A stretch of DNA of 48,381 nt from Bacteroidales bacterium (GCA_007128045.1 SKYG01000123.1:1-48381), one strand, 5' to 3'. Shown: positions 2,665 through 36,889, numbered from the stretch's first letter. Made by a program: numbers and translations. Notes: generated by a model from the sequence alone, not told the origin.

Positions 2665-3748
2665 ATGATATATAACGACAACATAAAAGAACTTGACAAG
2701 AGGCTCGATGCCCTAAGGAGGTTTCTTTGACATTGATTCAAGAAACAAACAAATAGAAGACTTACAAGGCCTCACTGAGTCTGCCGACTTTTGGAATGAG
2801 TCCAGAGAGGCAGAAAAAATTCTTAAAGAAATATCAGAGCTCAAAAAATGGACTGGTGATTATGAAGAAGCATGCCAGCTATTAGAAGACCTCAAGGTGT
2901 TATTTGAGTTCTTTGAGGCTGGAGAGGGCAGTGAAGAAGAAGTAACCAAAACCTATGACAAGGTTATTAAAGCCATCGACAAGCTCGAGTTTCGGAAGAT
3001 GTTAAGTAAGGATGAGGACAGACTGAATGCCATTGTAAATATCAACTCCGGAGCTGGTGGCACCGAAAGTCAGGACTGGGCAGAAATGCTGATGCGTATG
3101 TACCTTCGATGGAGCGAGCGTAACAATTATAAATCAAATGTGCTTGACATTCAGGAAGGTGATGGTGCAGGTATAAAGAGCGCCTCTATCGAGATTGAAG
3201 GTGAAAATGCCTTCGGGTATCTTAAAGGAGAAAGTGGGGTGCACAGGCTCGTCAGGTTATCACCATTTGATGCCAACCATAAACGCCATACATCATTTGC
3301 TTCTGTATATACCTATCCAGTAGTAGACGATAGCATTGAAATAGAAATTAATCCGGCTGATTTAAGCTGGGACACCTTCAGGTCTAGCGGACCCGGCGGA
3401 CAGAACGTGAACAAAGTTGAAAGCGCTGTCAGGGTACGCCACGCCCCATCCGGCCTCATCGTTGAATGTCAGGAAACAAGATCCCAGGGTCAAAACAGGG
3501 AAAAAGCCCTCACCATGCTGAAATCTCAATTGTATGAGCTTGAGTTGAGAAAGAAGAGAGAAAAACTGCAGGCATTGGAAAGCTCCAAGAAAAAAATTGA
3601 ATGGGGATCACAAATCAGAAGCTATGTGTTTCACCCCTACAAAATGGTCAAAGACTTACGAACTGGTGTTGAAACATCAAATGTGCAACATGTGATGGAT
3701 GGAGAAATTGATGAGTTCATCAAAGCATTCCTCATTGAGTTTGCCTGA
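2665..3748 (+). CDS. prfB: Peptide chain release factor 2, requiring a programmed +1 frameshift at 2725-2731
   Basis: Frame 1 runs ATG 2665 ... AGG AGG TTT CTT TGA (stop at 2728-2730). Frame 2 continues from GAC 2729 into the tracked ORF 2897-3748, which carries SPF and GGQ (SGPGGQNVNK) motifs. The 21-codon N-terminal piece MIYNDNIKELDKRLDALRRFL is RF2-like. Confidence 0.9.
2716..2731 (+). promoter_or_regulatory. prfB +1 frameshift cassette (internal SD-like AGGAGG, 3-nt spacer, CTT TGA C slippery/stop site)
   Basis: The sequence AGGAGG-TTT-CTTTGAC has the same spacing and slippery site as the classical E. coli prfB recoding signal. Confidence 0.9.
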
Positions 3749-12080: not shown

Positions 12081-12187
12081 GTGTTTATTTTTTTCCCTTT
12101 GACCTTCGACCTTCGACCTTTGACCCCCATGAAAAACAATCATGCGTCTGTGTGTCAAAGTGTTTGTCATGGGTATTTCATGTGTTT
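12081..12187 (-). repeat. About 100-nt start-codon-abutting repeat element, well-conserved copy
   Basis: In gene orientation it reads AAACACATGAAATACCCATGACAAACACTTTGACACACAGACGCATGATTGTTTTTCATGGGGGTCAAAGGTCGAAGGTCGAAGGTCAAAGGGAAAAAAATAAACAC|ATG. It is near-identical to the copies at 31588, 33222 and 35937. Confidence 0.9.
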
Positions 12188-12291
12188 AAAATTGTCTGAA
12201 TGTCTGAATGTCGAAAAGTCAAAAAAAAGGGGAAATCTTTTAATCATGCGTCTGTGTGTCAATGCGTTTATCATAGACGTGTCATGTGTTT
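12188..12291 (-). repeat. Degenerate tandem second copy of the same element
   Basis: It keeps the core AAACACATGAC..ATGATAAACGCATTGACACACAGACGCATGATT. The heptamer block is replaced by CATTCAGA-type octamers (plus strand GTCTGAAT x2). Confidence 0.75.
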
Positions 12292-26450: not shown

Positions 26451-27230
26451 TTATTGTTTGCTGATTGAGTTAATTAATTCGTGGATGGCCTTTTGTTCAT
26501 CACTGGTTTTTGCAAGCAGCTGCAGATAGGCTGTGCCGATAATAGCTCCCGAAGCATGATCCCAGGCATCCTGTAATGTCACCCGGTCATGTATGCCAAA
26601 GCCCACCACCACAGGGTGTGACAGCCGCATTTCCTTTAGCCTCTTTAAATAGGCAAGCTTTTGTTCACGGGCATTATCATTGGCACTACCTGTAGTTGAC
26701 GCCGTACTAACGGCATAGATAAAGGCAGTACTCTCCCGGTCGATTTCACGGATTCTGTCTTCTTTTGTGGATGGGGTAATCAGAAATACAAAATGAAGGC
26801 CATAATCCCTAAATAGCTTTTTATACTGGCTGGTATATTCATGCATAGGCAGGTCAGGCAAGATGACACCCGACACCCCGGCATCCCGGGCCTTCTTGCA
26901 GAAGTCCTCCACACCATATTGCAATACCGGGTTCAGGTAACCCATAAGGATCAAAGGTGTGCGAAGCTTCCCCTTTAGTCTTTCCAGCTGCGTGAAAAGC
27001 AAATCCATAGTCATGCCGTTTCTGATAGCCACCGTGCTGGTTTGTTGTATAACCGGGCCATCTGCCAGGGGGTCTGAATAGGGGATGCCCACCTCTACAA
27101 AATCCACGCCAGCGTCTTGAAAAGATAGTAACACACCAGTGGTACTGTCTAAGGTGGGGAATCCGGCAGTAAAAAATATCGACAATAGGTTGTCTGACTT
27201 TTTGTCAAGTAGTTTTGTAAGTTCATTCAT
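26451..27230 (-). CDS. trpA: Tryptophan synthase alpha chain
   Basis: 259-aa ORF. EVGIPYSDPLADGPVIQ and GFGI motifs. Confidence 0.9.
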   Translation of the reverse strand: MNELTKLLDKKSDNLLSIFFTAGFPTLDSTTGVLLSFQDAGVDFVEVGIPYSDPLADGPVIQQTSTVAIRNGMTMDLLFTQLERLKGKLRTPLILMGYLNPVLQYGVEDFCKKARDAGVSGVILPDLPMHEYTSQYKKLFRDYGLHFVFLITPSTKEDRIREIDRESTAFIYAVSTASTTGSANDNAREQKLAYLKRLKEMRLSHPVVVGFGIHDRVTLQDAWDHASGAIIGTAYLQLLAKTSDEQKAIHELINSISKQ

Positions 27231-27233
27231 TGT

Positions 27234-28412
27234 TCAGGCAAAATAATGTTGAAAGCTAACCATATCTTTGTCGCCTCGTCCAGACAGGCTGATAACGACC
27301 ACATCGGAGGGCTTGAATGTTTGTTTGTCAAGAATCGCCAGTGCGTGTGCCGACTCCAGTGCGGGTATAATGCCTTCCATACGGGTAAGCGACAAGGCGG
27401 CTTGCATGGCTTCATCATCGGTAACAGGCAGGTATAATGCCTGTTTGCTTTTGTGCAGCCACGCATGCAGGGGGCCAATACCCGGATAATCCAGTCCTGC
27501 TGAGATTGAATGAGCCTCCTCCACCTGTCCGTCGGAAGTTTGCATCAATATGGTTCTGGTGCCATGCAATATGCCCTCTGACCCTATCGAGATAGTCGCG
27601 GCGGTTTTTCCGGAATGAATGCCTTCTCCAGAAGCCTCTGCACCTATCAGTTTGGTGGTGCCATTACCGATAAAATGAAAGAAGGCACCAGCAGCATTAC
27701 TGCCTCCGCCTACGCAGGCAATCACATAGTCAGGATCTTTCCGGCCTTCCTTTTCCAAAAGCTGGCTCATCATTTCCTGGCTGATGACAGCCTGTAGCCG
27801 GGCTACCAGATCGGGATAAGGATGAGGTCCAATGGTGGAGCCTATCAGGTAGTACGTATTGTCCGGATGGTTAATCCAATAACGGATGGCGTCATTGGTA
27901 GCATCTTTGAGTGTTTGGCTGCCGGAAGTAACCGGTATAACTTCGGCACCCAGCATATTCATCCGCAACACATTGAGCTCCTGGCGTTGGGTATCCTTTT
28001 TACCCATAAAAACGGTACAGGGAAGCTTTAACAAAGCGCATACCGTTGCGGTGGCCACCCCATGTTGTCCTGCCCCGGTTTCTGCAATGATGTGCTTTTT
28101 GCCCATTCGCTTCGCCAGCAATGCCTGACCAACAACGTTATTCAGCTTATGGGCCCCTGTATGGCAAAGGTCTTCGCGTTTCAGGTAGATCTTTGTCCCG
28201 TACTTTTCCGATAGGTTCGCGGCATAAAACAAAGGTGTAGGCCGTCCTACATAATCTTTTAACAAAGAAGCCAGCTCCGACCGATAGCTGTCGGTTCCCA
28301 TGATTTTCAGGTAGGCATTTCTTAGCTCTTCAACGTTATCGTATAATAACTCTGGGATGTATGCACCTCCAAACGTGCCATAATACCCCAAATTGTCAGG
28401 ATGTGAATTCAT
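27234..28412 (-). CDS. trpB: Tryptophan synthase beta chain
   Basis: 392-aa ORF. The PLP-lysine motif is HTGAHKLNN, with GGGSNA downstream. Confidence 0.95.
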   Translation of the reverse strand: MNSHPDNLGYYGTFGGAYIPELLYDNVEELRNAYLKIMGTDSYRSELASLLKDYVGRPTPLFYAANLSEKYGTKIYLKREDLCHTGAHKLNNVVGQALLAKRMGKKHIIAETGAGQHGVATATVCALLKLPCTVFMGKKDTQRQELNVLRMNMLGAEVIPVTSGSQTLKDATNDAIRYWINHPDNTYYLIGSTIGPHPYPDLVARLQAVISQEMMSQLLEKEGRKDPDYVIACVGGGSNAAGAFFHFIGNGTTKLIGAEASGEGIHSGKTAATISIGSEGILHGTRTILMQTSDGQVEEAHSISAGLDYPGIGPLHAWLHKSKQALYLPVTDDEAMQAALSLTRMEGIIPALESAHALAILDKQTFKPSDVVVISLSGRGDKDMVSFQHYFA

Positions 28413-29032
28413 AATCGTATCTGCTTTATAAAGGTAGAAAGCAGTTCAGGGTCTTTGATCCCTGGTCTGGTTTCAAATCTACTATTAAGGTCTACTCCGG
28501 CAAAGGTCACAATGTTTTCGGCCAAACTGGTAATCAATGATGCATCTGCCGGTGAGATGCCACCACTTAGTATAAAAGGGGTACTTAGCTGATAGGCTTC
28601 CAGTATGGAGTGGTCAAACTTTTCACTGTTTCCCCCACGCTTTTTTCCTGCCTTGTCAAACAGAAACATATCGCACGTTCCCTCGTATTCCGGGAGATCA
28701 TCCGGCAGTTCATCATCAACAGAAAAGGCCTTTATGACCATGCAATAATCTCCAAGTTCACTACAATAGGATGGGGGTTCCTCCCCATGTAACTGTACTG
28801 CCTGAAACCCATATTTATGGATCAGGTGGCGGGCTTGTTTCAGGTCATGATTTACCAATACCGCAACCTTGTCGATAGCTTTTGGCATATCTTTCAGCTT
28901 CAAGTTATCAATCTTAAAAGTGACATCACGAGGTGATGGCTCATAAAAGATGAACCCCATATACTCCGGCTGCAACCAGGCCAGCTTCATCATGTTCGAT
29001 TGATCTGTAATTCCGCAAATTTTTATATGCAT
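28409..29032 (-). CDS. trpF: Phosphoribosylanthranilate isomerase
   Basis: 207-aa ORF starting MHIKICGIT. It overlaps trpB by 4 nt (ATGA-type overlap). Confidence 0.85.
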   Translation of the reverse strand: MHIKICGITDQSNMMKLAWLQPEYMGFIFYEPSPRDVTFKIDNLKLKDMPKAIDKVAVLVNHDLKQARHLIHKYGFQAVQLHGEEPPSYCSELGDYCMVIKAFSVDDELPDDLPEYEGTCDMFLFDKAGKKRGGNSEKFDHSILEAYQLSTPFILSGGISPADASLITSLAENIVTFAGVDLNSRFETRPGIKDPELLSTFIKQIRL

Positions 29033-29823
29033 GGCACATGTTTTTTTAAACCACTGATGAATTGTTCACAAGCTTTTTGGGGACTGGCTTCTCTCATAAA
29101 ATATTCGCCAATTAAAAACCCACAATAACCAGCCTCCCTGAGGGTAGCATAAATTTCAGGCGAGTCGATCCCACTCTCAGCAACTTTTACTACATTTTCT
29201 GGCAATTGCCTCACCAGCGAAATGGCATGTCCGGTATCTACTGAGAAATTTTTCAGGTTTCTGCTGTTAACCCCAACAATCCGGGCATCAGGGGGCAGCC
29301 TGTCAACACCATGTGTGTCATGCACCTCAAACAGCACTTCCATGTCTAATGAACGTGCCAGCCCGAACAATGTTTTTATCTCATTATCAGTAAGCACATC
29401 AACAATCAGTAAGATGGCATCAGCGCCAATGCTGCGCGACTCAATAACCTGGTATTCATCAACGATAAAATCCTTGCGAAGAATAGGGCAATAGTTGTTT
29501 TTTCGTGCCATGATCAGGTCATTTTTTGAGCCTCCAAAATAGGTGGTGTCGGTTAATACCGACAGTGCAGAGGCTCCGGCCTGCATGTATCCCAGGCATA
29601 TCTGACCCGGATTGGCGAATTCATTGATCATCCCCTTAGATGGCGATTTTCTTTTAAACTCAGCGATAATCCCATGGAGATCCGGCCGGAGAATATATTT
29701 CTTCAGTGATACCGGTCTGGCCTGGAAGTAGATACTTCTTTCAAGTAGTTTTACCGGATAGAGTTCTTTTTGTCCGGCAACTTCCTGGCGTTTATGCGCG
29801 ATAATCTTGTCAAGTATTGTCAT
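29023..29823 (-). CDS. trpC: Indole-3-glycerol phosphate synthase
   Basis: 266-aa ORF. IIAEFKRKSPSKG motif. It overlaps trpF by 10 nt. Confidence 0.9.
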   Translation of the reverse strand: MTILDKIIAHKRQEVAGQKELYPVKLLERSIYFQARPVSLKKYILRPDLHGIIAEFKRKSPSKGMINEFANPGQICLGYMQAGASALSVLTDTTYFGGSKNDLIMARKNNYCPILRKDFIVDEYQVIESRSIGADAILLIVDVLTDNEIKTLFGLARSLDMEVLFEVHDTHGVDRLPPDARIVGVNSRNLKNFSVDTGHAISLVRQLPENVVKVAESGIDSPEIYATLREAGYCGFLIGEYFMREASPQKACEQFISGLKKHVPCI

Positions 29824-30815
29824 GACTGATGTTGTATTAAACGTGTAAATGACTCCAGTGCTTTCCCTGACACCAGTGATTCTCTGGCCAAATCAACAGC
29901 ATCTGTGAGGGTCAAATGGTTGTTGTAGCATTGTATTGCCAGGCCTGCATTGGCAAGAACGGCATTGGTCTGTTGAATTGTGCCTTTGTTTTTGAGTACA
30001 TCCATAAACACCTCGGCAGCTTCGGCAACACTTTGTCCGCCGTAAAGCGATTCTGGTTTGTTATATGGCATCCTGAAGCTTTCAGGAGTCAGCAAATCTT
30101 CACCAAGGGGAGTGAACACCTTGATGGGCGAGGTTAATGATACTTCATCATATCCGTCAAGGCTGAATAAAACCACGTATTGCTTGTTTTCCCTTTGCAG
30201 CAGGTAGCTGAAAATACGACCCGCTTCAATACTAAAAACACCACTCATCTGGAATTTCGGACTGGCAGGATTGACCAGTGGTCCCAGTATATTGAAAAAT
30301 GTTTTTACCCCCAGTTGTTTTCGCACACCCCCAACGGCTTTCAGTGCTGGATGAAACAACGGGGCGTGCATAAAACAAATATTGGAGATATCTACCTCAC
30401 GCTTAAGCTTATCGCCGTCATGTGAGAAGCGGTAGCCATAGTATTCCATCACGTTTGATGACCCCGAAGAAGATGATATCCCATAGTTTCCATGCTTGGC
30501 AACAGGTATTCCGGCACCGGCAATTATGAAGGCTGTCAGGGTAGAGATATTGAATGTGTCTTTCCCGTCACCACCTGTCCCACATACGTCAATGGCCTGT
30601 CCGTCGAGGATGTTAACCTTATGTGCAAGTTCAAGTATGGCATCGCGGAAGCCAAGCAACTCTTCCAGACTGATGCTGCGCATAATAAACGCAGACAATA
30701 CCGCTGCTTTCTGTGCGTCATTGACATCACCATTGGCAATTCCATGCATCAGCACCCCTGCTTCAGCCCTGTTTAACTGCTGAGATTCCAACAGCTTGAT
30801 TAGAATTTCTTTCAT
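29820..30815 (-). CDS. trpD: Anthranilate phosphoribosyltransferase
   Basis: 331-aa ORF. DVCGTGGDGKDTFNIST and KHGN motifs. It overlaps trpC by 4 nt. Confidence 0.9.
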   Translation of the reverse strand: MKEILIKLLESQQLNRAEAGVLMHGIANGDVNDAQKAAVLSAFIMRSISLEELLGFRDAILELAHKVNILDGQAIDVCGTGGDGKDTFNISTLTAFIIAGAGIPVAKHGNYGISSSSGSSNVMEYYGYRFSHDGDKLKREVDISNICFMHAPLFHPALKAVGGVRKQLGVKTFFNILGPLVNPASPKFQMSGVFSIEAGRIFSYLLQRENKQYVVLFSLDGYDEVSLTSPIKVFTPLGEDLLTPESFRMPYNKPESLYGGQSVAEAAEVFMDVLKNKGTIQQTNAVLANAGLAIQCYNNHLTLTDAVDLARESLVSGKALESFTRLIQHQS

Positions 30816-30829
30816 ATGTTTATAAATGT

Positions 30830-31012
30830 GTTGATTTGTTGATTTGTTGATCTGTTGATCTGTTGATGAGTTGAGGAGTTGAGGAGTCTGAAGGTCTGAA
30901 AGTTAAATAAATATCCTTCTTCCTCAGTGCTCCTTTCTCAGCGCTCCTTTCTCCTTTTTCAGTGCTCAGTGCTTATAATCATTTCAACTTTTCAACTTCT
31001 CAACTTCTCAAC
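30830..31012. repeat. Composite oligomer-repeat spacer between trpG and trpD
   Basis: Nine 8-nt units lie in a single register at 30830-30901: GTTGATTT x2, GTTGATCT x2, GTTGATGA, GTTGAGGA x2, GTCTGAAG, GTCTGAAA. These are followed by a 15-nt CTCAG(T/C)GCTCCTTTC x2 unit, TCAGTGC x2, and the inverted-orientation array TCAACTT(T/C) x3.6 at 30984-31012. Confidence 0.95.
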
Positions 31013-31587
31013 TAAATTTTAGCCAGCCAATTCATGATCATCCGTTTACCATCGGGGGTAAGTATTGATTCCGGATGAAACTGCACCCCGCAAATATCCC
31101 ATTCTTTATGACTGATCGCCATGATCCTGCCTTCATCATCATAGGCATCAACCTGTAAACAATCCGGGAAGCCGTTCTTGTCTGCAATCCATGAATGATA
31201 CCGTCCGGCCATAAATGTATTGTTCACCCCATCAAACAGGTAATGAACCGGTTCATTAAGATGGATGTTGGTTGCCACACCATGATACACCTTGCTGATA
31301 TTCTTCAGCTTCCCGCCAAATGACTCTGTGATGGCCTGCAGTCCCAGGCAAACGCCCAAAATACGCTTACTACTTTTATACCTGTCTATAACAGCAAGCA
31401 ATAAACCAGCCTCATCAGGAAGACCAGGGCCAGGCGACAAAATGATCCCGTCAAACGCCTCCACCTCATCAAGGGTAAGTTCATCATTACGCTTTACCTC
31501 AACCTGAAATCCTTCTGCTTCACGTACATAGTGAACCAGGTTATACGTGAATGAATCATAATTATCCAGTACAAGAATTTTTTTCAT
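31012..31587 (-). CDS. trpG: Anthranilate synthase component II (glutamine amidotransferase)
   Basis: Start called at ATG 31587 (MKKILVLDNYDSFTYNL). The catalytic triad region is GVCLGLQ...HPES. The 30 upstream in-frame codons belong to the repeat element. Confidence 0.9.
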   Translation of the reverse strand: MKKILVLDNYDSFTYNLVHYVREAEGFQVEVKRNDELTLDEVEAFDGIILSPGPGLPDEAGLLLAVIDRYKSSKRILGVCLGLQAITESFGGKLKNISKVYHGVATNIHLNEPVHYLFDGVNNTFMAGRYHSWIADKNGFPDCLQVDAYDDEGRIMAISHKEWDICGVQFHPESILTPDGKRMIMNWLAKI

Positions 31588-31684
31588 CTGTTTATTTTTT
31601 TTCCCTTCGACTTTCGACCTTTGACCCCCATGAAAAACAATCATGTGTCTGTGTGTCAAAGCGTTTATCATGGGCATTTCATGG
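31588..31684 (-). repeat. About 100-nt start-codon-abutting repeat element inside the trp operon (trpE-trpG spacer)
   Basis: In gene orientation it reads CCATGAAATGCCCATGATAAACGCTTTGACACACAGACACATGATTGTTTTTCATGGGGGTCAAAGGTCGAAAGTCGAAGGGAAAAAAAATAAACAG|ATG. Confidence 0.9.
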
Positions 31685-31708
31685 TATCTTATTCCAATAT
31701 ACTTTTAT

Positions 31709-33121
31709 TCACAAACTAAATTGTTCTGCCAGCTTTATTGCCTTGCGCAAGGCAGATATTTTTCCGTTTACTTCCTTTAACTCACCCTCTTCACTGGAGT
31801 CGATAACCACACCGGCCCCGGCCTGATAAACAAGTTTCCCACGTTTGCTCATAAAGGAACGTATCATAATGGCATGGTTTAGGCTTCCCCCCAGCCCCAG
31901 TATTCCAATGGCGCCACCATAAAAGCCCCTGGCCGTGCCTTCATAACTATCAATCAGTTGGATGGCTTTGTGTTTTGGTGCGCCAGACAAGGTTCCGGCA
32001 GGAAAGGTGTCGGCAAACAACCGGTAGTTGTTGTTGGTGCGAAACATCTTACCTTTAACGGTCGACACCAGGTGAATAACATGTGAGTATGTATGCACCT
32101 CTCTGAATGTTTCAACAGTTACATCATCAGAATGCTTACTTAAGTCATTGCGCGCCAAGTCAACAAGCATACAATGCTCCGCATTTTCTTTCTCGTTCTT
32201 TAGCAGATCAGCTATCAATGCGGCATCCTCGTCCGGACTACCGGTTCTGATGACTGTTCCGGCTATGGGGTTGATAACAGCTATTCCATCACTGATCCGG
32301 AGTTGGGCTTCGGGTGATGAGCCAAACAGCTTGTAGCTCAAGTAGTCGAAGTAAAAAAGATACGGTGACGGATTGATAGAACGAAGAGCCCGGTAAACAT
32401 TAAATTCGTCGCCGGAAAAGTTCTGTTCGAAGCGGCGTGACAAAACAATTTGAAACACATCTCCTCTGGCGCAGTGCCTGATTCCGTTTCTGACCATTTC
32501 CATAAAACGTTCGTCGCTGACGGGGGTAAATTCTTCACCAGTGGCCATAAACGGGAAGCTGGTTGCATTTCTGTTTGCCAGAAGAGACATTACCTTGGAA
32601 ATCATAGACTTTTCACCTTCGGCAATTAACTCCGTGATGCTTAATGTATTGTTAAAGTGGTTGAAGGCAATAACCACCTGGTACAGGTCATACCTGAGTA
32701 AAGGGATGCGATCAGCATCTGCCTCAGGTGATGTGATATTCACATTGTCGAACAAGCTCACTGCATCGTAAGAGGTATAGCCAAACAATCCAGGCATGGT
32801 CTTTTCGCTGAAGTCACCTTCTATTTTGATGGTTCCAAGATACTGGTCAATCAAATTTGATACGGCATGATACCCTTCGAAAGAAAGATGATCATCTGCC
32901 TGGCCCCTTTTTCTGAGGTAAAAATTGTCTGCACTGGCCTCGAAGCCCATGATGGGAGTCAGACAAATATAGGAGTATGAATCATGCCGGGAGCTGTAGT
33001 CTGAACACTCCAGCAATAAACTCTGCGGAAAAGCATCCCGCAAACGAAGGTATATTCCCACAGGCGTGTATGTGTCTGCCTGCAAATGTATTGTCGTTGC
33101 CTTTAATCTGATATCGTTCAT
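31709..33121 (-). CDS. trpE: Anthranilate synthase component I
   Basis: 470-aa ORF. The chorismate-binding C-terminal domain carries GTLSGAPK and GGAIG motifs. Confidence 0.9.
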   Translation of the reverse strand: MNDIRLKATTIHLQADTYTPVGIYLRLRDAFPQSLLLECSDYSSRHDSYSYICLTPIMGFEASADNFYLRKRGQADDHLSFEGYHAVSNLIDQYLGTIKIEGDFSEKTMPGLFGYTSYDAVSLFDNVNITSPEADADRIPLLRYDLYQVVIAFNHFNNTLSITELIAEGEKSMISKVMSLLANRNATSFPFMATGEEFTPVSDERFMEMVRNGIRHCARGDVFQIVLSRRFEQNFSGDEFNVYRALRSINPSPYLFYFDYLSYKLFGSSPEAQLRISDGIAVINPIAGTVIRTGSPDEDAALIADLLKNEKENAEHCMLVDLARNDLSKHSDDVTVETFREVHTYSHVIHLVSTVKGKMFRTNNNYRLFADTFPAGTLSGAPKHKAIQLIDSYEGTARGFYGGAIGILGLGGSLNHAIMIRSFMSKRGKLVYQAGAGVVIDSSEEGELKEVNGKISALRKAIKLAEQFSL

Positions 33122-33326: not shown

Positions 33327-33345
33327 ATATAATTTGCTATAACAG

Positions 33346-33379
33346 CAAGAGCCCACTTAACATGTTAAGCGGGCTCTTG
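33346..33379 (-). terminator. Candidate trp attenuator hairpin (15-bp stem)
   Basis: On the minus strand it reads CAAGAGCCCGCTTAA-CATG-TTAAGTGGGCTCTTG, with one G-U pair. It lies 31 nt downstream of the Trp-leader stop. The trailing CUGUUAU is only moderately U-rich. Confidence 0.55.
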
Positions 33380-33410
33380 TATCAGTTAATATCTAATGAA
33401 AGTAGCTGTA

Positions 33411-33485
33411 TTATAGACCTGAACGCTTAACAACATTGCTGTCGCTGCGCCACCACCAAAAGAATACAGTACTTAAACGGCTCAT
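33411..33485 (-). CDS. trpL: trp operon leader peptide (24 aa, three consecutive Trp codons)
   Basis: ATG 33485 to TAA 33413-33411 gives MSRLSTVFFWWWRSDSNVVKRSGL. TGG TGG TGG lies at 33458-33450. It is not in the ORF track because it is shorter than 60 aa. It lies upstream of trpE on the same strand and is followed by a hairpin with an alternative pairing partner inside the peptide coding region. Confidence 0.75.
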   Translation of the reverse strand: MSRLSTVFFWWWRSDSNVVKRSGL

Positions 33486-33506
33486 TTCTTTGTTCATTTA
33501 CGAATA

Positions 33507-33540
33507 CAATATTACATATTTTTTTTCAGACATCCACAAA
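33507..33540 (-). promoter_or_regulatory. Candidate promoter for the trp leader and operon
   Basis: On the minus strand, TTTG (33540-33537), a 22-nt spacer, and TAATATTG (33514-33507). The -7 box ends about 21 nt before the leader ATG. The spacer is 1 nt longer than the usual 19-21. Confidence 0.35.
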
Positions 33541-33575: not shown

Positions 33576-33607
33576 TTTGTTTTTTAACAAAAAAAAGACT
33601 AATATTG
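33576..33607 (+). promoter_or_regulatory. Candidate promoter for the phe/tyr leader and the pheA operon
   Basis: TTTG (33576-33579), a 20-nt spacer, and TAATATTG (33600-33607). It has one mismatch to TAnnTTTG. The leader ATG lies 29 nt downstream. Confidence 0.4.
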
Positions 33608-33636: not shown

Positions 33637-33699
33637 ATGAAATTATTCACTGCTTTTTTTAGCTTTTACTTTTACTTCTTTAGCAACAAAGGGGCGTGA
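33637..33699 (+). CDS. Phe/Tyr-rich leader peptide (20 aa)
   Basis: ATG 33637 to TGA 33697-33699 gives MKLFTAFFSFYFYFFSNKGA, with 7 Phe and 2 Tyr in residues 4-15. It is the C-terminal part of the spurious 87-aa tracked ORF 33436-33699. It is followed by a canonical intrinsic terminator immediately before pheA. Confidence 0.8.
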   Translation: MKLFTAFFSFYFYFFSNKGA

Positions 33700-33742
33700 A
33701 ATTGTGTGTGTTAATTGAAAAAATAAAATACATAAAGAACCA

Positions 33743-33769
33743 GGCCCCGCGATTGCGGGGTTTTTTTTT
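33743..33769 (+). terminator. Intrinsic terminator (attenuator) 9 nt upstream of the pheA start
   Basis: The stem is CCCCGC (33745-33750) with GCGGGG (33755-33760) and the loop is GATT. It is followed by T9 (33761-33769). The pheA ATG is at 33778. Confidence 0.8.
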
Positions 33770-33777
33770 GACTATAT

Positions 33778-34632
33778 ATGACGAAGAAAATTGCGATACA
33801 AGGTATCCGGGGCGCATTCCATCATGAGGCTGCCGCTCTGTATTACAAGAGCCAATTTGACATCTGCGAATGCATGACTTTTCACCACCTTATCGAAGCT
33901 GTTGAGGCAGGCGATGCAGATATAGGTGTGATGGCCATTGAAAACTCTATGGTAGGCAGCATGTTGCCCAACCTTGCCCTGATACGCAAATCAACCCTGC
34001 ATATCGTGGGAGAGGTATATATGCGTATCTCCCAAAATCTGATGGCATTGCCGGGAGAAAGCATCCAAACCTTGCAGGAAGTGCATTCGCATCCGATGGC
34101 CATCATGCAATGCGAAAGCTTTTTTCATAACCTTCAGGATATTAGGATGGTTGAGTCTGTCGACACGGCACTAAGTGCTAAAGAGATCAGCGAGAACCAA
34201 TTAAAAGGTATTGGCGCCATTGCCAGTGAAGCAGCTGCAAAGATCTACGGCCTTGACATTCTGGCGCCATCCATAGAAACAAATAAAAAGAACTACACCC
34301 GGTTTCTTATACTGGGACACAACGGAAACTCAATTGATCCGGCTATCCCGGTCAAGGCAAGCGTGGCATTTGTAGCTCCGCACCTGCCCGGCAGCCTGGC
34401 AGCCGTTTTACAACCCCTGGCAGAGGCAGGTGTAAACCTAAGCATGGTGCAATCACTGCCATTGATTGGCGCCAACTGGGAATATATTTTTCATGCCGAC
34501 ATGATCTTTCAAAATATTGCTTCCGCAAGAAACATCATCAATGACCTGCGAAAAAAGCTACAGGCAACATGGGTGATGGGCATCTACCCATCCAGTCCTG
34601 AAATTCAAGACAACACCAAAATGAAATTGTAA
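33778..34632 (+). CDS. pheA: Prephenate dehydratase (PDT domain plus C-terminal ACT domain)
   Basis: 284-aa ORF. IAIQGIRGAFHHEAA, TRF(L)ILG and ACT-region motifs are present. There is no chorismate mutase domain. Confidence 0.85.
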   Translation: MTKKIAIQGIRGAFHHEAAALYYKSQFDICECMTFHHLIEAVEAGDADIGVMAIENSMVGSMLPNLALIRKSTLHIVGEVYMRISQNLMALPGESIQTLQEVHSHPMAIMQCESFFHNLQDIRMVESVDTALSAKEISENQLKGIGAIASEAAAKIYGLDILAPSIETNKKNYTRFLILGHNGNSIDPAIPVKASVAFVAPHLPGSLAAVLQPLAEAGVNLSMVQSLPLIGANWEYIFHADMIFQNIASARNIINDLRKKLQATWVMGIYPSSPEIQDNTKMKL

Positions 34633-35792: not shown

Positions 35793-35813
35793 TTGATCTG
35801 ATGAAAACGCCAG

Positions 35814-35936
35814 TCAACATGTTTGACACACCGGCGCATGCTGACAGGCACCGGGTGAGATCCCGAACATGCGTTCGGGACTTCGCTTCGCTCAGCTGTT
35901 CGACATTCAGACTTTCAGACATTTTGACTAAAAAAT
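35814..35936 (+). repeat. Degenerate upstream copy of the start-codon-abutting element
   Basis: It retains CATGTTTGACACACCGGCGCATG, then an 8-bp hairpin TCCCGAAC-ATGC-GTTCGGGA, then CATTCAGA/CTTTCAGA octamers and an A-rich end. Confidence 0.6.
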
Positions 35937-36043
35937 AAACACATGAAATACCCATGACAAACGCTTTGACACACAGACGCATGATTGTTTTTCATGGGGG
36001 TCAAAGGTCGAAGGTCGAAGGTCAAAGGGAAAAAAATAAACAC
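35937..36043 (+). repeat. About 100-nt start-codon-abutting repeat element (reference copy)
   Basis: AAACACATGAAATACCCATGACAAACGCTTTGACACACAGACGCATGATTGTTTTTCATGGGGGTCAAAGGTCGAAGGTCGAAGGTCAAAGGGAAAAAAATAAACAC|ATG (tyrA start at 36044). Confidence 0.9.
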
Positions 36044-36889
36044 ATGAATATTTGTATTGTAGGTATCGGTTTAATCGGGGGATCTATAGCCATTGATTTG
36101 CGCAATAGGGGTTTTGCAAAACAGATCATCGGTGTTGACAGCAATCCGCACCACGCCACCATCGCGAAGCACAGTAAGTTGGTTGACGATATAGACACCC
36201 TGGAGAATGGGATAGAAAGGTCAGACCTCATCATCCTGTCAACCCCCATTGACTCTATCAAAAAACTACTTCCCAGAGCATTGGATTCTGTAACAGGAAC
36301 CAAAAAAGTCATTACCGATATGGGATCTACCAAAGGTGGGATGAGTAGTCTGGTAGAAAATCATCCAAACAGAAAAAACTATGTTGCCGCACATCCTATG
36401 GCCGGGACAGAATATTCCGGACCACTTGCCGCCATCGGCAAACTGTTCGACTATAAATGCGCCATCATATGCGACAAGGAGAAAAGTAGTCCGCAAGCTT
36501 TAAAGGTGGTGAAAAAAATGTTTGATGTTCTGAACATGAAGGTAATTTACATGAATGCCAATGAGCACGATGTAAGTGCAGCCTATGTATCACACATCTC
36601 CCATATTTCGTCATTTGCCCTGTCGTTATGCGTACTGGAAAAGGAAAAGGATCAAAAACGTATACTAAGCCTGGCCAGTGGTGGGTTTGCCTCTACCGTG
36701 AGGCTGGCCAAAAGTTCGGCTGACATGTGGACGCCGGTATTTGAACAAAATTCGATGTATGTACTTGAAGTGTTAGACACCTATATCGAAAAATTGAAGA
36801 TGTTTAAAGCCTATATCGAAAGCAACAACCAGAAAGGCATAACCGATCTTATATTGGAAGCAAATAAAATTCAGAAAATACTTAACTAA
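36044..36889 (+). CDS. tyrA: Prephenate dehydrogenase
   Basis: Start called at ATG 36044, giving MNICIVGIGLIGGSIA (a Rossmann GxGxxG right at the N-terminus). AHPMAG motif. The 30 upstream in-frame codons are repeat-element sequence. Confidence 0.85.
   Translation: MNICIVGIGLIGGSIAIDLRNRGFAKQIIGVDSNPHHATIAKHSKLVDDIDTLENGIERSDLIILSTPIDSIKKLLPRALDSVTGTKKVITDMGSTKGGMSSLVENHPNRKNYVAAHPMAGTEYSGPLAAIGKLFDYKCAIICDKEKSSPQALKVVKKMFDVLNMKVIYMNANEHDVSAAYVSHISHISSFALSLCVLEKEKDQKRILSLASGGFASTVRLAKSSADMWTPVFEQNSMYVLEVLDTYIEKLKMFKAYIESNNQKGITDLILEANKIQKILN

Follow-up and report, generated by a model that had tools for sequence, protein, structure and literature searches.

The 656-nt spacer between the divergent trpE and pheA genes of the window (the whole stretch of Bacteroidales DNA analysed here, 48,381 nt long) houses a leader ORF and a hairpin that very probably, at roughly 85%, constitute a tryptophan-sensing, ribosome-mediated transcription attenuator of the Bacteroid-trp (RF01692) kind. 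This attenuator type has already been published for Bacteroidetes and is not new; the part that may be new is a ~100-nt repeat situated between the attenuator and trpE.

On the minus strand, positions 26451-33121 hold seven genes assigned by Pfam to TrpE, G, D, C, F, B and A, and a divergent plus-strand operon carries pheA (33778-34632), an aminotransferase and tyrA. The leader had been described as unannotated, and public gene calls on a same-species contig indeed show no gene between pheA and trpE. The closest TrpE relatives are Bacteroidales MAGs with 60-67% identity; scans of species-representative genomes and metagenomes returned no TrpE relative above 67% identity, and an exact-protein look-up of TrpE returned no record. 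Same-species contigs were retrieved via TrpB, whose amino-acid sequence is identical in them. For wider comparison, 160 Bacteroidota trpE loci were fetched, 150 of which were usable for counting Trp-run (W-run) ORFs upstream. The coordinates originally predicted for the ORF, the hairpin and the complementary segment all proved correct on re-checking. The elements of the locus are as follows:

31709-33121, minus strand: trpE (anthranilate synthase I; Pfam Chorismate_bind and Anth_synt_I_N), heading trpEGDCFBA
33507-33514, minus strand: promoter-like -7 box TAATATTG, 9 nt upstream of ATG 33497
33411-33497, minus strand: trp leader ORF MNKEMSRLSTVFFWWWRSDSNVVKRSGL, 28 codons from ATG 33497 or 24 codons from ATG 33485
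33450-33458, minus strand: three consecutive UGG (Trp) codons, the putative sensing site and core of segment 1
33440-33456, minus strand: segment 1, comprising UGG codons and following codons, partner of segment 2 in the 1:2 hairpin
33424-33433, minus strand: segment 2, (U)UGUUAAGCG, inside codons V-V-K-R, partner of segment 1 or segment 3
33400-33474, minus strand: outer helix around the 1:2 hairpin, 33474-33463 pairing with 33412-33400 in the minimum free energy (MFE) structure
33371-33363, minus strand: segment 3, the distal 5' arm plus loop, bound by segment 2
33346-33379, minus strand: attenuator hairpin (segments 3:4), with 5' arm 33379-33365, loop 33364-33361 and 3' arm 33360-33346
33336-33345, minus strand: degenerate U-tract region, CUGUUAUAGC once the full stem ends

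The frame predicted as a 24-codon ORF with three TGG codons reads MSRLSTVFFWWWRSDSNVVKRSGL, from ATG 33485 to the stop codon at 33413-33411. It also opens four codons earlier, at ATG 33497 (MNKEM...), a type of start shared with the closest relative, L001 (MNKDM...), under the common pattern MNK[ED]M. To our knowledge, a Shine-Dalgarno sequence is not expected in Bacteroidota. Within the 48-kb window, TGGTGGTGG has just two occurrences. Comparison of trpE upstream regions in relatives revealed that the W-run ORF is conserved phylum-wide and that, within an 8-sequence clade, the terminator and the hairpin between the UGG codons and segment 2 covary. A short ORF of this type was found no more than 300 nt upstream of trpE at 134 of the 150 loci, compared with 0/150 in the reverse complement and 2/150 after shuffling of the same stretches; a further count gave 147 of 154 loci. 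Typical encoded peptides include MKMLQSNNWWWKSLNLR (Tenacibaculum), MKLIRTNWWWLSCFRKSGA (Bacteroidales) and MKNNTVNKYWWWHTNSNRGL (Chitinophagaceae). When the relatives were folded, the UGG codons lay on the 5' side of an imperfect hairpin, and a GC-rich stem with a U-tract followed the leader ORF shortly before trpE.

The leaders vary in several respects across the phylum. In Prolixibacteraceae-type loci (L061, L012, L026, L030, L048 and L051), trpE is preceded by two trp leaders in tandem, the first encoding ...NTIWLPWWGLLT and possessing its own terminator, the second encoding the usual ...NIWWWQ... and followed by a second terminator; at L061, which is Maribellus maritimus, the tandem leaders lie at 2195-2500 with a fold z of -8.1. 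Some loci scored as having no W-run in fact carry an alternating W/H leader, ...HNWHWHHSNLS..., ~150-200 nt upstream of trpE (L022, Carboxylicivirga; L058, a Marinilabiliaceae MAG). Furthermore, WWWH occurs in many leaders of the phylum, in which codons for His are frequent beside the Trp run, and the Rfam seed file likewise remarks on CAY codons. The His codons next to the Trp run may reflect RNA pairing (UGGCAC with GUGUU) or dual sensing.

The 15-bp hairpin placed 31 nt past the leader stop by the original prediction is confirmed, with a 4-nt loop, one G-U pair and a folding energy of -24.3 kcal/mol. Among the nearest relatives (60-67% TrpE identity), recognisably homologous leaders were found at L001-L005, L081 and L082, and their alignment (A1) matches the window well over the region that begins with the UGG codons and ends with the terminator tail. 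Herein, the UGG-codon columns are invariant, the hairpin of the window is homologous to the hairpins of all these loci, and the terminator covaries, with 6 compensatory pairs and a score reached by 0/500 shuffles. RNAalifold on the resulting 8-sequence clade returned two helices, namely the terminator and a hairpin between the UGG codons and segment 2. In this clade consensus, 33456-33447 (UGG plus the next codon) pairs with 33433-33425, with 95% of cells paired; segment 1 therefore consists of the sensing codons, as in the classical model. The MFE structure of the window itself pairs 33452-33440 with 33435-33420, and the 1:2 region by itself has a folding energy of -11.2 kcal/mol. Considered jointly, the 1:2 and terminator helices show 7 pairs changed on both sides and 94.6% of cells paired, compared with 34-53% when the helices are slid, and 0/500 shuffles reach their covariation.

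The third pairing, between segments 2 and 3, was part of the original prediction. As stated there, TGTTAAGCG (33432-33424) is 100% complementary to 33371-33363 over 9 bp, and the stop codon is positioned 10 nt past segment 2. The antiterminator 2:3 has 92.9% of cells paired in the clade, compared with 24-43% when slid. Its only compensatory change turns U-A into C-G in L081, and in L003-L005 two positions are wobble-compatible with the 1:2 pairs kept too. Taken alone, the 2:3 helix varies little within the clade and its shuffle control is not significant, which counts against it. Across 108 loci (39 others having been excluded by a strict terminator finder), the duplex between the post-W region and the terminator 5' arm plus loop has a mean z of -1.7, with 42 loci below -2; in the window, the duplex of segment 2 with the 5' arm has z = -2.5, beating 198/200 shuffles with 2/200 as good. 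Altogether, the comparative and folding tests support alternative pairing of the Yanofsky type. Segment 2, the 5' arm and the hairpin stand as previously proposed, and the scheme is completed by segment 1, which had been left unnamed and corresponds to the UGG codons and the next codons. Relatives, when folded, show outer helices analogous to that of the window, as does the Rfam seed alignment; the outer helix corresponds to the hairpin of the published motif, and it could possibly serve as a pause hairpin.

Folding with and without masking of the ribosome-covered positions reproduced the expected switch. In the absence of a ribosome and before synthesis of the 3' arm, segment 2 sits in the 1:2 hairpin. 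When a ribosome with its A site on the second or third UGG was simulated (mask to 33441 or 33438) on a transcript ending at the loop, the MFE structure changed from 1:2 to the 9-bp 2:3 helix at -14.4 kcal/mol. With its A site on the stop codon (33413-33411), a ribosome would cover ~33428-33399 and so occupy segment 2 in its 3' half, having unwound 1:2 on its way. Once the 3' arm is transcribed, the terminator (-24.3 kcal/mol) is thermodynamically favoured in every ribosome state, which counts against the attenuator reading; antitermination must therefore be kinetic, and 2:3 must form first.

On these grounds the following course of events is proposed. Transcription would begin a few nt ahead of the leader ORF, and a ribosome would translate the 24- or 28-codon leader. 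When charged tRNA-Trp is scarce, we infer that the ribosome stalls at the run of three UGG codons (33458-33450), thereby covering segment 1, whereupon the freed segment 2 (33433-33424) would pair with 33371-33363 before the 3' arm is made, allowing read-through into trpEGDCFBA. When Trp is plentiful, the ribosome would cross segment 2 to the stop 10 nt further on; after its release, segment 2 would re-pair with segment 1, the hairpin 33379-33346 would form and transcription would stop.

The placement of a candidate promoter is compatible with this course. The Bacteroidetes -7 consensus is TAnnTTTG, and TAATATTG at 33514-33507 is the sole TAnn[AT]TTG on the minus strand in the whole pheA-trpE spacer. 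A -7-like motif occurs at similar spacing before the leaders of L001, L002 and L081. The box at 33507-33514 may thus act as a promoter, and its position suggests a transcription start just upstream of the leader; ATG 33497 would then be near-leaderless, and ATG 33485 would have an A-rich 5' UTR of ~15 nt. Between the hairpin and trpE, repeat included, no TAnn[AT]TTG was found; on this evidence there is therefore no separate trpE promoter, and expression would need read-through.

A second candidate attenuator lies on the opposite strand of the spacer:

33600-33607, plus strand: -7-like TAATATTG before the phe leader, a mirror copy of the trp box
33637-33699, plus strand: phe leader peptide MKLFTAFFSFYFYFFSNKGA, with 8 Phe and 2 Tyr in 20 codons
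33742-33763 plus T9, plus strand: canonical phe terminator, ending 5 nt before pheA ATG 33778

The Rfam Phe_leader model (RF01859) scores 34.4 bits on this leader (E = 0.0012; gathering threshold 55 bits), and a putative attenuator ahead of pheA has been listed for B. thetaiotaomicron (PMC1173090, Table 7). Since the neighbouring pheA operon has an F/Y-rich leader and a terminator, leader-peptide attenuation seems to be in use at this locus. The Bacteroides sRNA model BTnc231 of Rfam overlaps the phe leader at 33640-33768 on the plus strand with 16.6 bits against a threshold of 80 bits, an overlap that is probably due to chance. It also prompts one to ask whether terminated leader transcripts account for some of the Bacteroides "intergenic sRNAs" that have a transcription start site and a terminator.

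Downstream of the attenuator, the two ~100-nt repeats noted previously before trpE occupy 33322-33122 and take up most of the 224-nt distance from the hairpin to ATG 33121. They belong to a dispersed set:

33322-33222 and 33221-33122, minus strand: tandem repeat copies before trpE, ending exactly at the trpE ATG and supplying an A-rich stretch
31586-31684, minus strand: full copy before the likely real trpG ATG
12083-12182, minus strand: full copy before a secreted-protein gene at 12 kb
35944-36045, plus strand: full copy before the likely real tyrA ATG
12183-12285, minus strand, and ~35800-35943, plus strand: variant-type repeats stacked upstream of full copies
3002-3190 and 4626-4831 of contig L161, and 220-319 of contig L165: copies in other contigs

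Every copy seen is in sense orientation, starts with ATGAAAxxCCCATGA and abuts a start codon. The repeat ends in AAAAAATAAACAC, every copy closing with AAAAAATAAACA(C/G) directly before the ATG of the gene; the translation-initiation region of the gene is therefore replaced by that of the repeat. Two variants were distinguished, with (GTCRAAG)n or (YTTCAGAC)n arrays and often in tandem, and one copy shows a compensatory change from CUUUGAC/GUCAAAG to UUUUGAC/GUCAAAA. A protein search with the repeat reading frame recovered one further copy, in an unrelated metagenome contig and again abutting a start codon. No copies were found in the 160 related loci, nor in viral contigs or plasmids; Rfam holds no family for the repeat, and no -7-box-like motif was found inside it. 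A frame relay, in which the repeat ORF is in frame with the downstream gene or overlaps it by ATGA, was seen in both trpE copies and in the trpG and tyrA copies and was set aside as statistically unconvincing.

Strain comparison separates this repeat from the attenuator. From pheA to nucleotide 44 of the repeat, leader and hairpin included, L161 is identical to the window; before trpE it has one variant element, (YTTCAGAC)x8, instead of two type-A copies, and before trpG two copies compared with one in the window. Two strain contigs besides the window carry the attenuator unchanged base for base, whereas their downstream spacer differs. Because the spacer varies between strains and the attenuator is invariant, the repeat was inserted recently, varies from strain to strain and does not belong to the attenuator; it is lineage-specific and external to the ancestral element. 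It also affects gene annotation: mechanical ORF calls start trpG at 31677 and tyrA at 35954, both ATGs lying inside the repeat, and public gene calls on L161 give equal lengths (221-aa TrpG and 311-aa TyrA). The real starts are most likely 31585 for trpG (MKKILVLDNYDSF...) and 36046 for tyrA (MNICIVGIGLIGG...), where the Pfam domains begin. A tentative idea, which we regard as possible and not as likely, is that the repeat represents a "5'-UTR cassette", spread by mobility or by recombination, whose targets are the surroundings of start codons in a bacterium without Shine-Dalgarno sequences and which would modulate expression beyond the attenuator.

A feature of the element that fits less well is the tail of the hairpin. 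It had been remarked that the hairpin lacks a clean U-tract, and this observation holds: the tail UUGCUGUUAU, read from 33348 by counting the last three stem pairs as tail, has 5 U in its first 8 positions. At the aligned tail position the window reads CUCUUGCUGUUAUAGC, where relatives have CUCUUUUUAUUU, UUCUUUUUUUU, CCUUUUUUUGUU and similar clean U-tracts. The U-poor tail of the window is thus unlike that of every aligned relative and counts against intrinsic termination; because of it, the hairpin was missed on the minus strand by a consensus terminator scan. In the phe-leader terminator, ~400 nt distant, the tract is U9; canonical terminators are therefore in use in this organism, which makes the trp tail a genuine local deviation. 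In addition, the stem of the window is longer than those of its relatives by UUAAC/GUUAA, which turns the loop of the relatives into stem, and this is also why the 3' arm resembles segment 2. Judged from the alignment, the lengthened stem and the degraded U-tract are derived, lineage-specific features.

The degraded U-tract gives room for two other readings of the locus. The leader could sense Trp while the block is imposed by Rho or polarity on the ~290-nt untranslated stretch, or by a pause or roadblock hairpin that needs a NusA/NusG-like factor, and the distance from the leader stop to trpE, ~290 nt in the window versus mostly 75-130 nt in relatives, also fits such a block. This reading is nevertheless unlikely: the hairpin is homologous to canonical terminators of relatives and is stronger here, and a spacer that varies between strains is hard to square with an essential role. 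G-rich RNA is a poor site for Rho loading (rut), and the sense strand of the spacer is G-rich (GGGGGUCAAAGGUCGAAGG...). Alternatively, loss of the U-tract could have weakened or abolished termination, leaving a decaying relic and a trpE no longer tightly attenuated in this lineage; the adjacent mobile-repeat insertions, which show that the region tolerates disruption, would agree with this. Such decay is likewise unlikely, given an intact ORF, the preservation of all three alternative pairings, a terminator stem that has been lengthened and not eroded, 100% identity in independent strain contigs despite a differing adjacent spacer, and no alternative promoter-like motif between the hairpin and trpE.

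A chance short ORF beside an unrelated palindrome, whether REP-like or serving to terminate some other transcript, has in its favour only that short ORFs and palindromes arise by chance in AT-rich spacers. The comparative data effectively refute it: the W-run ORF is found at 134/150 loci against 0/150 reverse complements, the hairpin is orthologous and covarying, with the duplex z at -2.5, and the flanking operons are divergent, so no upstream gene needs a terminator here. A Trp-sensing, ribosome-mediated attenuator, at which termination would take place despite the U-poor tail, hence remains the preferred reading.

For this genome, the attenuator would account for the predicted control of the trp operon, and the ancestral attenuator can be set apart from the strain-variable repeat insertion that causes the false trpG and tyrA start calls. 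More broadly, leader conservation suggests that classical ribosome-mediated trp attenuation is near-universal in Bacteroidota.

Among known systems, the element shares its logic with E. coli trpL, from which it differs in detail. In E. coli, trpL encodes a 14-codon peptide with two Trp codons, and the terminator exceeds the antiterminator in stability, which makes the choice kinetic. The window likewise has tandem Trp codons in segment 1, three mutually exclusive pairings, a stop codon that would let the terminating ribosome block segment 2, and a terminator that outranks the antiterminator in stability, with a kinetic choice; in contrast, it has three Trp codons, a 24/28-codon peptide and a segment 2 that is itself translated. 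No sequence or model similarity to E. coli trpL was detected, as the Trp_leader model (RF00513) gave no match on the minus strand at E<=10; on the plus strand only, it scored 19.3 bits over the phe-leader terminator and, as a truncated match, 13.3 bits over the trp hairpin region. The phe leader of the divergent transcript follows the same regulatory logic and differs in the amino acid sensed and in strand (33637-33772, plus). TRAP (Bacillus) and T-box trp attenuation also involve a choice between antiterminator and terminator in a trp leader, but they sense via a protein or uncharged tRNA and not via a translating ribosome; a TRAP-type array of 11 (G/U)AG triplets is absent from the leader, and no T-box, riboswitch or other Rfam cis-regulatory family matched at E<=10. 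The best Rfam match was AbsR25 (25 bits, E = 0.013, threshold 47 bits), judged a terminator-driven chance similarity.

Attenuators in Bacteroidetes were reportedly predicted by Vitreschak et al. in 2004. According to one paper from 2010, only Proteobacteria and Actinobacteria had by then been shown to have leader-peptide systems, and our literature search found no experimental test of such a leader in Bacteroidota. The closest counterpart is Bacteroid-trp (RF01692), a cis-regulatory motif of Bacteroidetes (Weinberg et al., 2010, Genome Biol 11:R31, PMC2864571), which was described as a "loosely conserved hairpin" and presumed to be a peptide-leader attenuator, with no antiterminator model given (PMC2864571). 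Its seed, which includes Bacteroides, Parabacteroides, Flavobacterium, Cytophaga and others, has the layout of an ATG, a UGG run, a hairpin and the start of a terminator. The window resembles it in that its ORF has at least two UGG codons (three consecutive), that it lies upstream of trpE in a member of the Bacteroidetes at the orthologous position, and that the UGG codons are in the 5' strand of a hairpin (MFE helices of 33474-33440 with 33435-33400). The RF01692 model, whose gathering threshold is 49 bits, gave no match to the window at E<=10, whether 1.2 kb or 211 nt were searched. Of 20 related loci, a single one, L006 (49.7 bits), reached the gathering score, and its layout matches that of the window. 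The element thus appears to be a Bacteroid-trp member by defining features and orthologous position, not by curated model score. It differs from other members in its longer terminator stem, its degraded U-tract and the repeat-filled spacer of ~224 nt before trpE. The current Rfam model misses most members (1/20 loci at threshold versus ~90% with the ORF), and a rebuilt model would therefore improve annotation. Compared with the original description, a family published as a loose hairpin is here given an explicit scheme of 1:2, 2:3 and 3:4 pairings, supported by covariation.
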